Source: Gammaproteobacteria bacterium (GTDB taxonomy: Bacteria; Pseudomonadota; Gammaproteobacteria; JABDGN01). Taken from it: 64,000 nt of DNA. A program made the translations under genes and the position numbers. Shown here piece by piece: positions 19,885 through 22,113 of this stretch; positions within the stretch are counted from its first letter, which is position 1, and every line of letters starts with the position of its first letter. The stretch covers positions 5,317 to 69,316 of the forward strand of contig JABDGN010000003.1 in assembly GCA_013285995.1 (NCBI GenBank). Direction: 5' to 3'. The notes below the pieces were generated by a model that saw only the letters and a program-made list of their open reading frames with translations, ran no database searches and was not told the DNA's origin.

Positions 19885-20205
19885 ATGCAAAAATTTACCA
19901 CCTTCCACGAGTTTTATCCTTTCTATTTACAAGAGCATAGTCACCCCATTAATCGACGCTTACATTTTATTGGCACCACTTTGTTATTACTCATTTTAAT
20001 TGCGGCGCTGATAACTCGCTATTGGTATGGTTTTATTTTATTGCCGATTGTGGGTTATAGTTTTGCGTGGGTGGGGCATTTCTATATTGAAAAAAATAAG
20101 CCTGCTACGTTTAAACATCCGTTTTATAGTTTAGCAGGTGATTTTCGGATGTTTTACGATATTTTGCGTGGTAGAATTATTTTAAAATCTGATAAACATA
20201 ATTAA
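19885..20205 (+). CDS. DUF962-family small membrane protein
   Basis: 106 aa. MQKFTTFHEFYPFYLQEHSHPINRRLHFIGTTLLLLIL pattern typical of bacterial DUF962/Mpo1-like proteins. Confidence 0.65.
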   Translation: MQKFTTFHEFYPFYLQEHSHPINRRLHFIGTTLLLLILIAALITRYWYGFILLPIVGYSFAWVGHFYIEKNKPATFKHPFYSLAGDFRMFYDILRGRIILKSDKHN

Positions 20206-20880
20206 TTGCCCAGGTTGCGTTAAAAAATGATCTTTGAGTTTTGCTTTTAACTGAGCTAATTCCCATGTTAAATAATGATGAGGAGTTAACTGTTTAATAT
20301 AAGGCATGCGCTCGGCAAAATAAGCCTCTAAATCTAATTCTTCTAATGCTACTTGGTATTCAATATCCAGTTGAGTAATATCGATATCAAGTAACGCAAT
20401 GACTTCTCCTGCTGTAAGTCCTAATCGATGAAAATAGCCTAAACCTTGTTCTAACTTAAGAAAGAAGGCGCTCAGTTCAGCACTGAGTTGTTGCGACACA
20501 ATTGTTTTATCAAACCAAGGTTCGGTAACAATAATTCCTTGCTGTGCAACGCGGGCTGCTTCTTTGATAGCTTGTTGAGGACGGGGTAAGTGGTGTAGTA
20601 CTTTGCCGAGTAATACCCAATCAAACGATTTATCTGGGTAAGGGAGTGGTTTATTTACGTTGTCTATTTTTGCTTGAATACCTTGCGCTTGTAAATCTTT
20701 TATATAAGGCTCGTGAACGTCTATTCCTGCTACGCTAATATTGCCTTCATTTTGTAAATAAATTAATTTATCCCCTTGGCCACATCCCACTTCTAATAAA
20801 CTGGTTATTTTAGGTTCAAGTGCGTTGAGTTTGGCAATCAGCTGTTGATCGGATTTTGAGAGTAATAATGGCTTAGTCAT
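20182..20880 (-). CDS. class I SAM-dependent methyltransferase
   Basis: LEVGCGQGDKLIYL motif I and DWVLLGKVLHHL. Overlaps the upstream HExxH gene by 8 nt, so likely an operon. Confidence 0.75.
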   Translation of the reverse strand: MTKPLLLSKSDQQLIAKLNALEPKITSLLEVGCGQGDKLIYLQNEGNISVAGIDVHEPYIKDLQAQGIQAKIDNVNKPLPYPDKSFDWVLLGKVLHHLPRPQQAIKEAARVAQQGIIVTEPWFDKTIVSQQLSAELSAFFLKLEQGLGYFHRLGLTAGEVIALLDIDITQLDIEYQVALEELDLEAYFAERMPYIKQLTPHHYLTWELAQLKAKLKDHFLTQPGQLIMFIRF

Positions 20881-21916
20881 GATGAATTATACTCGACATA
20901 TTGTTAAAAAATTCTCTGCCAAATTCCGTCAATTGAGCAGACTGTTGAATAATGCTTTCACCTTGTTTAAATTTGTATTGATAAGCTTCTAGTCGCGGAT
21001 AAAACGTCATGGGTAAGTCCGCAAGAGGACGGTTAAAATCATATGCATCTAATTTCTGGGTGGGAAAATACTCTGCAAAGAATTTTTCCAATAAACGATA
21101 AGCCATGATTAAGCGAAATACCACAAAATGCCCATGAAAAATACCTTTCATGGGCCTATTGGTATTGCGCGCTGGCGAGAAAAAAAATTCTTTTGAATTT
21201 ATAATCATGGGATCAAAAGTGATTAAGAGATTGAGGTAGTTATGGGCAGCTTCATGAATGATAGAATCAAAAAAATACAGCAATTGTTCTGCTTGCGAAT
21301 TAAATCGATGATAGCGCATCATAATAAGGCCGAAAAATCCTACACTCGAGGCATTAGACGCTTTCCCTCCACCGTCAAAAATATTAATAGCAGAGATAAT
21401 TTCGTTTATTTCTTCTGAGAGATGAGTATTATTTGCGATAATATTAAAACTTCGTTGAATGTAAGAGCTTACTTCTTGATAATCAAATGACGATACGGTA
21501 GTAATTTCTTCGCGTTTATATTTTTTGTCATCGCCTAAATTATTTTTATATAATTCCATCATTATGCTTGAGGTATTGCTGGTAATAACAAATTTATCGT
21601 GGTAAAAGTTATCGGAGGTCGGCAATAAATTAAGCGTATTACACAGGTTGAATGCTGTTTCATTATTTTGCTGAACCATATGTGTTAGCAAAGTAAAGTA
21701 ATAGCAGTAAAACTCGGGGGAGAAATGTCGAGTTGGATTTAAATTCTTTAATAAGTCTAGCAAAGGAGATAAATCGGTGGTTAAGTGTTTTTGTACTTCA
21801 GTTACTAAGCCAATAAAACTTTTTTTAGTTTTGTTCCTTAACTCATTGTGCAACAAGGGCAGGGCAGGGTTGCCCGCTAAGGGAGCTGCAAATTCTGTTA
21901 AGAGGGGGAATGTCAT
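20873..21916 (-). CDS. HExxH-motif domain protein (candidate peptide-modifying oxygenase or metallohydrolase)
   Basis: 347 aa with IIHEAAHNYLN followed by ...KGIFHGHFVVF. No signal peptide. Confidence 0.7.
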   Translation of the reverse strand: MTFPLLTEFAAPLAGNPALPLLHNELRNKTKKSFIGLVTEVQKHLTTDLSPLLDLLKNLNPTRHFSPEFYCYYFTLLTHMVQQNNETAFNLCNTLNLLPTSDNFYHDKFVITSNTSSIMMELYKNNLGDDKKYKREEITTVSSFDYQEVSSYIQRSFNIIANNTHLSEEINEIISAINIFDGGGKASNASSVGFFGLIMMRYHRFNSQAEQLLYFFDSIIHEAAHNYLNLLITFDPMIINSKEFFFSPARNTNRPMKGIFHGHFVVFRLIMAYRLLEKFFAEYFPTQKLDAYDFNRPLADLPMTFYPRLEAYQYKFKQGESIIQQSAQLTEFGREFFNNMSSIIHHD

Positions 21917-21935
21917 CGTTGCCCACTTTTTAAAA

Positions 21936-21961
21936 GGGGATAAACGGTACGGTTTATCCCC
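21936..21961. terminator. bidirectional stem-loop (ggggataaacggtacggtttatcccc) flanked by T/A runs
   Basis: 10-12 bp perfect stem. Lies between the stop of the 43-aa ORF and the start of the HExxH gene. Confidence 0.6.
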
Positions 21962-21981
21962 TTTAGCTAAAATAAAAAAAA

Positions 21982-22113
21982 TTAAGCCGCATTCAACAAA
22001 ACAGGGATCAAATCTGTACCATCAAATACCAAATCTTCCGGTAAGTTGAAGATAGTTGTTTTTTGCTCGGCAATTACTTTATTCAAGCTGTTAACCACAT
22101 TTTTAGAGTTCAT
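21982..22113 (-). CDS. small 43-aa ORF (MNSKNVVNSLNKVIAEQKTTIFNLPEDLVFDGTDLIPVLLNAA); candidate precursor peptide
   Basis: Not in the 60-aa ORF track. ATG at 22113 is preceded by GAGGGGGAAATT (strong SD). Ends 20 nt before the hairpin, upstream of the HExxH/MTase genes. Confidence 0.45.
   Translation of the reverse strand: MNSKNVVNSLNKVIAEQKTTIFNLPEDLVFDGTDLIPVLLNAA

Follow-up and report, generated by a model that had tools for sequence, protein, structure and literature searches.

Does a short open reading frame (ORF) that lies directly in front of two enzyme genes encode the peptide on which these enzymes act? The question is raised by a 64,000-nucleotide stretch of DNA from a Gammaproteobacteria bacterium (GTDB lineage JABDGN01; NCBI GenBank assembly GCA_013285995.1, contig JABDGN010000003.1, positions 5,317 to 69,316), which is referred to here as the window and to which all coordinates apply unless another locus is named. 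On the minus strand of the window a 43-codon ORF (21982..22113) is followed by a stem-loop (21933..21964), by a gene for a 347-residue protein with a HExxH motif (20873..21916) and by a gene for a 232-residue class I S-adenosylmethionine (SAM)-dependent methyltransferase (20182..20880). An earlier note, made from the sequence alone, had proposed that these elements constitute a module for the production of a peptide that is made on the ribosome and modified after translation (RiPP). Taken as a whole, the cassette is likely to be best explained as a compact three-gene RiPP-type operon composed of a precursor, an aKG-HExxH-type hydroxylase and a methyltransferase, and this reading draws its support from the identity of the HExxH enzyme and from the conserved linkage of the small ORF.

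The ORF specifies the peptide MNSKNVVNSLNKVIAEQKTTIFNLPEDLVFDGTDLIPVLLNAA, the same product as in the earlier note, and the strong Shine-Dalgarno (SD) sequence claimed for it can be read from the sequence as GAGGGGG (22119..22125, minus strand), 5 nucleotides before the ATG. An ORF of this length says little by itself; 128 ORFs of at least 30 codons occur in 16 kb of the window, so that one of 43 codons alone is not beyond chance, and support therefore had to come from other genomes. Small ORFs lie directly upstream of the genes for the two homologues closest to the HExxH protein (42-43% identity), and scanning the species genomes of GTDB and the metagenomes of JGI yielded further loci. The carriers include Legionella sp. 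D16C41, L. nautarum and L. drozanskii, a gammaproteobacterial metagenome-assembled genome (MAG) with two related loci, the Burkholderiaceae Paraburkholderia sediminicola, P. sp. EB58, P. metrosideri and three Caballeronia strains, and several metagenome contigs. Wherever the DNA in front of the HExxH gene is included, as it is in 18 distinct loci, the gene immediately preceding it is a peptide ORF of 36-51 residues, and the products share the C-terminal motif F-x-[LIV]-P-x3-[IV]-x-[DE]-G-x-D-[LF]-x-[PA]-T-[VIL]-Q-x3. The small ORF is thus kept beside the enzyme pair in every related locus for which the region in front of the HExxH gene is included, which is the outcome of the conservation check that the earlier note had named.

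A profile built from 43 homologous peptides, with the window peptide left out, gives the window ORF a score of 40.8 bits (E=1.5e-11 among 1,784 six-frame segments of the window, and E=4.7e-5 when scaled to 5.8 billion sequences), and the runner-up segment of the window reaches 6 bits. In a search of 5.8 billion proteins the peptide profile recovered 36 clusters, nearly all of 37-56 residues and all either unnamed or annotated as 'hypothetical protein'; the family comprises about 40 distinct peptides, and an NCBIfam scan of 19 of them returned no precursor model. The conservation of the peptide is at the protein level, since the host loci range from 32% to 60% in G+C content (GC) across gamma- and betaproteobacteria, and the ratio of non-synonymous to synonymous changes (pN/pS) in pairwise comparisons of related peptide genes is below 1, mostly 0.12-0.55. 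A GGAG-type SD precedes almost every homologous peptide ORF, and two loci (L001 and L006) carry two tandem copies of the peptide gene each. On the grounds of homology to the left-out profile, the SD and the conserved synteny, the 43-codon ORF can be taken with hardly any doubt as a genuine gene with linkage to both enzymes; being small, linked to modifying enzymes and conserved with them, it has the properties by which RiPP precursor genes are recognised. Between the two intact genes of L001 there is a third, degenerate copy (5690-5770, ending in RELFNIPPKLIANGGDLLTTR before the stop codon) which has no start codon and is preceded by in-frame stops; this copy points to a birth-and-death turnover of precursor genes, as far as its sequence can tell.

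What kind of enzyme is encoded next to this peptide? The 347-residue protein contains the motifs IIHEAAHNYLN and GIFHGHF and hence the HExxH and downstream histidine that the earlier note had described. The same arrangement is a signature of zincins, and the protein might accordingly be a zincin-type HExxH metalloprotease, possibly a secreted effector, with the small ORF being noise; the aKG-HExxH fold has indeed been described as zincin-reminiscent and PflC, one of its members, has a hydrolytic side activity. However, the Pfam scan of the protein returned no family and no peptidase even at E<=1, whereas the protein matches TIGR04267 (mod_HExxH / IPR026337, aKG-HExxH-type peptide beta-hydroxylase) over residues 168-270 with 49.1 bits against a cutoff of 40. 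A Paraburkholderia orthologue scores 64.8 bits against the same model, and the orthologue of Paraburkholderia caribensis is named 'aKG-HExxH-type peptide beta-hydroxylase' by NCBI. An exhaustive HMMER search of 1.84 billion representative proteins returned 716 relatives, of which 13 lie below E=1e-30 and form a close subfamily of stand-alone proteins of about 340-370 residues. The profile of this subfamily matches ChlH (PDB 8s5f) at E=4.7e-11, and the HExxH motif, two arginines and the downstream histidine align with IHEHRH...R..LRP...H of that structure. In the set of 67 homologues, H221, E222, H225, N240, R250 and H261 are invariant and R254 nearly so, and within the 13 close relatives R254 shows no variation; the conservation of the two arginines and of other positions shared with ChlH speaks against a zincin.

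The predicted fold leads to the same result. An AlphaFold2 model based on the homologue alignment (predicted local distance difference test, pLDDT, 94.2; predicted template modelling score, pTM, 0.93) was compared by Foldseek with 350,542 PDB chains and matched 8s5f at E=3e-10, with a template modelling (TM) score of 0.69-0.73 over the full length. The second match was 22ob (SjiH) at E=1.6e-5 and the next had E=0.9, below which only aKG-HExxH proteins are found; no protease is among the significant fold matches in this set. The 347-residue protein contains no hydrophobic signal-like or membrane segment (Kyte-Doolittle maximum 1.23), which is a further point against a secreted protease, and it shows neither the profile nor the protease fold by which zincin metallopeptidases are defined. 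Given the profile score above the cutoff, the conserved residues and the predicted fold, the protein is very probably an aKG-HExxH oxygenase and not a protease. The comparison of mod_HExxH with peptidase profiles and the search for a protease fold or a translocation signal, both suggested in advance, have come out in favour of the oxygenase, and the metalloprotease-type effector with an unrelated or non-coding ORF, which had been left as the alternative, is effectively excluded by the profile, the fold and the clear conservation of the small ORF.

The third gene overlaps the HExxH gene by 8 nucleotides (ATGACTAA), as had been noticed before, and is translationally coupled to it through this overlap. 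Its 232-residue product matches Methyltransf_11 with 61.3 bits against a cutoff of 21.2 and contains the motif I sequence LEVGCGQG, in which G-C-G-x-G is invariant among orthologues; a Rossmann SAM domain with this glycine-rich motif places it among the class I SAM methyltransferases, in agreement with the initial assignment. Orthologues with 37-53% identity lie behind the HExxH gene in 13 loci, and the methyltransferase gene adjoins the HExxH gene in all but two of the complete loci (L005 and L019). The C-terminal half of about 110 residues is specific to the family, and the invariant residues of the protein include H96, H97, W122, D124, Q145, H151, R152, H202 and W206. Profile matches in the PDB, the best of which are of the Methyltransf_11 type, cover only the generic SAM-binding (Rossmann) half; they include a D-glucose O-methyltransferase, LahSB, BamL and phospholipid N-methyltransferases, and LahSB is a C-terminal carboxylate methyltransferase of lanthipeptides (PMC11285071). 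A single-sequence structure model of the window protein reached a pLDDT of 33.7. PADLOC gave no defence-system match and just a weak generic methyltransferase hit.

Which residues of the peptide could these enzymes modify? In the family alignments P25 and G32 are invariant, and the residues listed as common to all members, the window peptide included, are P25, [DE]31, G32 and D34, of which D34 is lacking in just two atypical members and D31 gives way to E in two. These positions fall within the conserved core motif F22-P37 (FNLPEDLVFDGTDLIP; 22003..22050, minus strand), which was defined by the alignments of the peptide family. Further towards the N-terminus, a semi-conserved alignment block with the consensus [IV]-N-x-[LV]-I-x-x-Q, represented in the window peptide by L10-Q17 (LNKVIAEQ; 22063..22086, minus strand), constitutes a putative leader recognition segment. 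Q40 is conserved throughout the family except in the window peptide, which has L40. A small membrane toxin was considered and rejected, as the window peptide is not hydrophobic and has a net charge of -2. At one locus, L019, the variant peptide (MKNNLLALVAQQQNQEVKFAIPEGVADEGLLTVIQLC; 2768-2881 of that locus) has lost D-G-x-D (FAIPEGVADEGLLTVIQLC) and the HExxH gene is followed by an unrelated gene for a 353-residue protein in place of the methyltransferase; this is a single case of joint loss of the motif and the methyltransferase, and it is counted in favour of a modification centred on Asp.

It is proposed that the 43-residue product is a precursor, in which residues 1 to approximately 21 with [IV]-N-x-[LV]-I-x-x-Q would probably serve for recognition by the enzyme, and in which the C-terminal 22 residues would hold the conserved core F-x-L-P-x3-V-x-D-G-x-D-L-x-P; the putative leader role of L10-Q17 follows RiPP precedent. 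The peptide is quite probably the substrate of the HExxH protein. The latter would be a cytoplasmic Fe(II)/2-oxoglutarate oxygenase with the iron probably held by H221, H225 and H261 and the 2-oxoglutarate probably bound by R250 and R254, as the alignment to 8s5f suggests. The enzyme would most likely beta-hydroxylate a residue of the core. The shared chemistry probably takes place on an acidic residue or on a proline, because P25, [DE]31, G32 and D34 are what all members have in common, and D34 is a better candidate than D31 in view of the glutamate found in place of the latter, which would give an order of preference of Asp34, Asp31 and Pro25. The methyltransferase would then add one methyl group, for which the first choice is an oxygen of the (hydroxy)Asp in DGxD, so that the product may be methoxy-Asp or an Asp methyl ester; the peptide terminus would be the alternative acceptor. 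This specific sequence of Asp hydroxylation and methylation is put forward tentatively, as a possible rather than a probable outcome. An Asp-ester or aspartimide route at Asp-Gly is only an idea. PCMT is absent from the Pfam matches of the methyltransferase, which thus lacks the homology expected of the PIMT-like peptide aspartyl O-methyltransferases (PAMTs) of lanthipeptides and graspetides, and a PIMT-type aspartimide pathway was rejected as its defining enzyme is not in the window.

Characterised members of the aKG-HExxH family catalyse the beta-hydroxylation of Asp, His, Phe, Gln or Pro in adjacent precursors (PMC12636437, PMC13060819), PflC and PosC in addition cleave off a C-terminal tetrapeptide oxidatively (PMC12636437), and the reactions of the family 'at present cannot be predicted' (PMC13060819). 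The same precursor and the same two enzymes could be engaged in a different chemistry, in which Pro25 or another residue is hydroxylated, or in which the short, variable tail at the C-terminus is cut off by oxidative backbone cleavage to leave an amide, and in which a peptide terminus is methylated. PflC and PosC remove the tetrapeptide after a Gln, and nearly all peptides of the present family end in the conserved Gln and exactly three variable residues; however, the residue after the Gln varies (Y, H, A, T, D, N, V, L, Q) whereas PosC needs Ala at this position, and the window peptide has neither the Gln (L40) nor the Thr while its enzymes are still intact. PesO hydroxylates Pro, and P25 is invariant here. 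Methylation of a terminus would fit the presence of LahSB (C-terminal carboxylate) and BamL (N-terminus) among the best PDB matches of the methyltransferase, but these matches are confined to the generic SAM-binding half. Although such a cleavage would explain how a cassette can do without a protease, chemistry of this kind is on the whole unlikely, and (hydroxy)Asp in DGxD is retained as the first choice.

How does the stem-loop fit into an operon of precursor and modifying enzymes? It was located by its inverted repeat and by RNA folding, with no strand assigned, and consists of a 26-nucleotide palindrome, GGGGATAAACGGTACGGTTTATCCCC, at 21936-21961 whose arms reach 21933-21964. The palindrome is unique in the window, and none is expected by chance. 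The hairpin has a stem of 13 base pairs and a loop of 6 nucleotides (4 nucleotides if the inner C-G pair closes), with UUUU next on the operon strand; the intergenic RNA folds with -23.3 kcal/mol (z=-3.0). In the earlier note it had been called a perfect bidirectional hairpin, of which the palindrome stands and the word bidirectional is irrelevant, as no plus-strand gene runs into it. A search of the window with Rfam models gave four tRNAs and nothing else; no leader or riboswitch of a known kind was returned close to the cassette. Among the related loci, a strong stem-loop starts no more than 10 nucleotides from the stop codon in 10 of 19 peptide genes (both copies of L001, and L007, L008, L011-L014, L016 and L019); together with that of the window, which starts about 17 nucleotides past the stop, this amounts to 11 of 20 peptide genes overall. 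The hairpin sequences are mutually unrelated between loci, and the feature would therefore seem to be kept by function and not by descent; the arrangement of precursor, hairpin and tailoring genes suspected from the window alone is thus a recurrent one. The hairpin is probably a partial terminator or an RNA stabiliser which raises the ratio of peptide to enzyme. Situated after the peptide gene, it would end or stabilise most transcripts and thereby provide the peptide in excess over the enzymes.

A hairpin between the ORF and the enzyme genes would also be expected if the ORF were a regulatory leader peptide or upstream ORF that acts via this structure, and the lack of a protease or exporter nearby, together with a C-terminal part unusually conserved for a RiPP core, would equally suit a small partner protein, with the enzymes acting on a different peptide, a protein or a metabolite in either case. 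Yet the peptides are conserved at the amino-acid level over genomes of 32-60% GC with pN/pS below 1, the tandem copies carry their own SD and hairpin, half of the loci have no hairpin at all, and no alternative anti-terminator structure or regulatory codon run is evident. Furthermore, the aKG-HExxH enzymes characterised so far all work on a precursor peptide encoded beside them, and a regulatory or partner role of the ORF is accordingly considered very unlikely. An attenuation leader peptide in particular was rejected, on the amino-acid-level conservation and the lack of an evident anti-terminator or regulatory codon run. The small ORF is thus best regarded as the precursor gene.

Several observations weigh against the RiPP-type reading or against parts of it. 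A modified peptide has yet to be seen with any enzyme of the HExxH subfamily, and the methyl acceptor is not readable from the sequence since the PDB matches of the methyltransferase span O- and N-methyltransferases. The tie between the methyltransferase and DGxD is weakened by L005, where DGLD is kept and no methyltransferase is adjacent; L005 shares its MAG with L009, which is a complete cassette. No protease, exporter or immunity gene adjoins the cassette of the window, and a gene of the major facilitator superfamily (MFS) adjoins it in only two Legionella loci. An OPT transporter gene is found near the cassette in one MAG locus. The core is more conserved than the leader, unlike in typical antibiotic RiPPs, and the window peptide ends in PVLLNAA and not in PTVQxxx, although T-V-Q is kept by every other DGxD member, so that the window peptide may be drifting. 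The hairpin, finally, is missing in about half of the related loci, and that of the window, with only 4 U downstream, was not called by a consensus terminator scan.

The closest parallels among known systems can be used to define what is familiar in the cassette and what is not. The HExxH domain of ChlB (ChlH, 8s5f) was described by Morishita et al. (Nat Chem 2024, as cited in PMC12636437 and PMC13060819). It shares with the window protein the same fold, with the TM score given above over the full length, and the alignment of HExxH, the two Arg and the downstream His, and according to the passages in which that work is cited it uses Fe and 2-oxoglutarate to beta-hydroxylate Asp and His in a precursor peptide of ribosomal origin. 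In contrast to the window protein, which stands alone, the same passages have the ChlB domain fused to a radical-SAM cyclophane synthase and in need of a pre-installed cyclophane; no radical-SAM gene was seen among the window genes scanned, and the sequence identity of ChlH to the 347-residue protein is only about 16%. PflC and PosC of Pseudomonas (PMC12636437) are likewise stand-alone aKG-HExxH enzymes in small proteobacterial RiPP clusters without a protease, and their precursors also have a conserved Gln near the C-terminus. However, those precursors are long peptides that combine a leader resembling nitrile hydratase with a run of Gln and, as their tail, an invariant ARMD, the partners are an MNIO-nitroreductase, GNAT and transporters with no methyltransferase, and the present peptides of about 45 residues with a DGxD motif are unrelated to them. 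PesO of the nitrilobacillin pathway (PMC13060819) and BpmH of the biphenomycin pathway (PMC12257519, PMC12707348) are further stand-alone aKG-HExxH tailoring hydroxylases, and PesO targets Pro, for which the invariant Pro of the present peptides offers a counterpart. They differ in that they come from Firmicutes or other hosts and belong to larger clusters with MNIO, peptidases and transporters, and act on other precursor families.

A parallel of another kind is provided by the lipopeptide A54145, where, as is proposed for the cassette, a hydroxylase and a SAM methyltransferase act as a pair on Asp in a short, acidic, Asp/Gly-rich motif. LptL is reportedly the hydroxylase and LptK the O-methyltransferase that produce its 3-methoxy-Asp, an assignment ascribed to work by Alexander and colleagues in 2011. 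The hydroxylated and O-methylated Asp (moAsp) is part of the calcium-binding tetrapeptide Asp-D-Lys-moAsp-Gly (PMC9113097). A54145 differs in being non-ribosomal, in the use of a canonical 2-oxoglutarate hydroxylase and in the order of the motif, which is D-x-D-G there and D-G-x-D here. By analogy, a hydroxylated and O-methylated Asp in an Asp/Gly-rich motif is a possible outcome for the present cassette.

The cassette of the window is surrounded by housekeeping genes. On the upstream side of the operon it is followed by two MetQ/NlpA lipoprotein genes and then by thrA, thrB, thrC and metI/metN. The two lipoprotein genes are tandem paralogues of the NlpA/MetQ type (22495..23307 and 23487..24296, minus strand) directly upstream of the cassette; metI and metN lie 5 kb beyond this pair (29550..31224), and no functional tie of the lipoprotein genes to the cassette is evident. 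The intergenic region of 380 nucleotides upstream of the peptide gene contains a perfect 10-nucleotide inverted repeat at 22166-22203 (ATATACTTCT ... AGAAGTATAT, 18 nucleotides apart), a candidate for an operator or for the terminator that ends the metQ-like gene upstream. At the other end, a DUF962/Mpo1-like gene (19885..20205, plus strand) is convergent with the methyltransferase gene, with a 3' overlap of 24 nucleotides and no terminator between them. The GC of the cassette is 35.9%, compared with about 43% in the surrounding core genes, which suggests that the cassette was horizontally acquired. One gene away from the cassette, a 648-residue ORF (17835..19781, plus strand) has about 38% GC and no Pfam or PADLOC match, and the stretch between 18 and 22 kb of the window looks like acquired DNA. 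A further ORF of 2744 residues (5826..14060, minus strand) has no Pfam match, is of low complexity and rich in Ala, Ser, Thr, Gly and Pro, and has 52-59% GC against about 43% in the core genes of the region.

Every Paraburkholderia and Caballeronia locus has two further co-directional genes after the cassette, separated by gaps of about 50 nucleotides (5805-7100 and 7146-8279 in L008; also in L007, L011-L014, L016, L018 and L021). They encode a DdaF-like ATP-grasp amide ligase of the dapdiamide synthase type and a protein with an AlaDh_PNT_N domain, and neither gene occurs in the window or in the Legionella-type loci. The additional genes might add a step to the pathway, such as the joining of an amino acid to a carboxylate. 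A graspetide was considered and rejected, as the ATP-grasp ligase which defines this class is not in the window; none is found beside the window cassette or in Legionella-type loci, and the ATP-grasp protein of the Burkholderiaceae is of the DdaF / L-amino-acid-ligase type.

What, then, would such an operon mean? The enzyme class (recognised in 2024), the logic of the operon and the kind of peptide are all known, and no new principle is involved; literature searches returned no description of the peptide family, of its pairing with this methyltransferase subfamily or of a product. With one peptide of about 45 residues and two enzymes, the cassette is near the minimal size of a RiPP system and would make an easy test case. 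The peptide family is rare, with the 36 clusters reported above, and part of it belongs to Legionella-type hosts from which few natural products are known, so that the cassette is a good genome-mining lead in a young enzyme family. The strong conservation of the core (P...[DE]-G-x-D...T-V-Q) points to a target or function that has stayed the same and not to a hypervariable antibiotic. A doubtful conjecture is that the cassette product is a functionally conserved modified peptide instead of an arms-race antibiotic, for example a metal binder or a signal with hydroxy- or methoxy-Asp in the invariant D-G-x-D, and that three genes suffice as the HExxH enzyme also trims the peptide or as trimming is not needed. 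If true, the cassette would define a RiPP family of its own in which two modifications are paired in a new way, and would stand as an experimentally confirmed RiPP of the Legionella group, and it would mean that a modified peptide is common to Legionella-like bacteria and to Paraburkholderia and Caballeronia.

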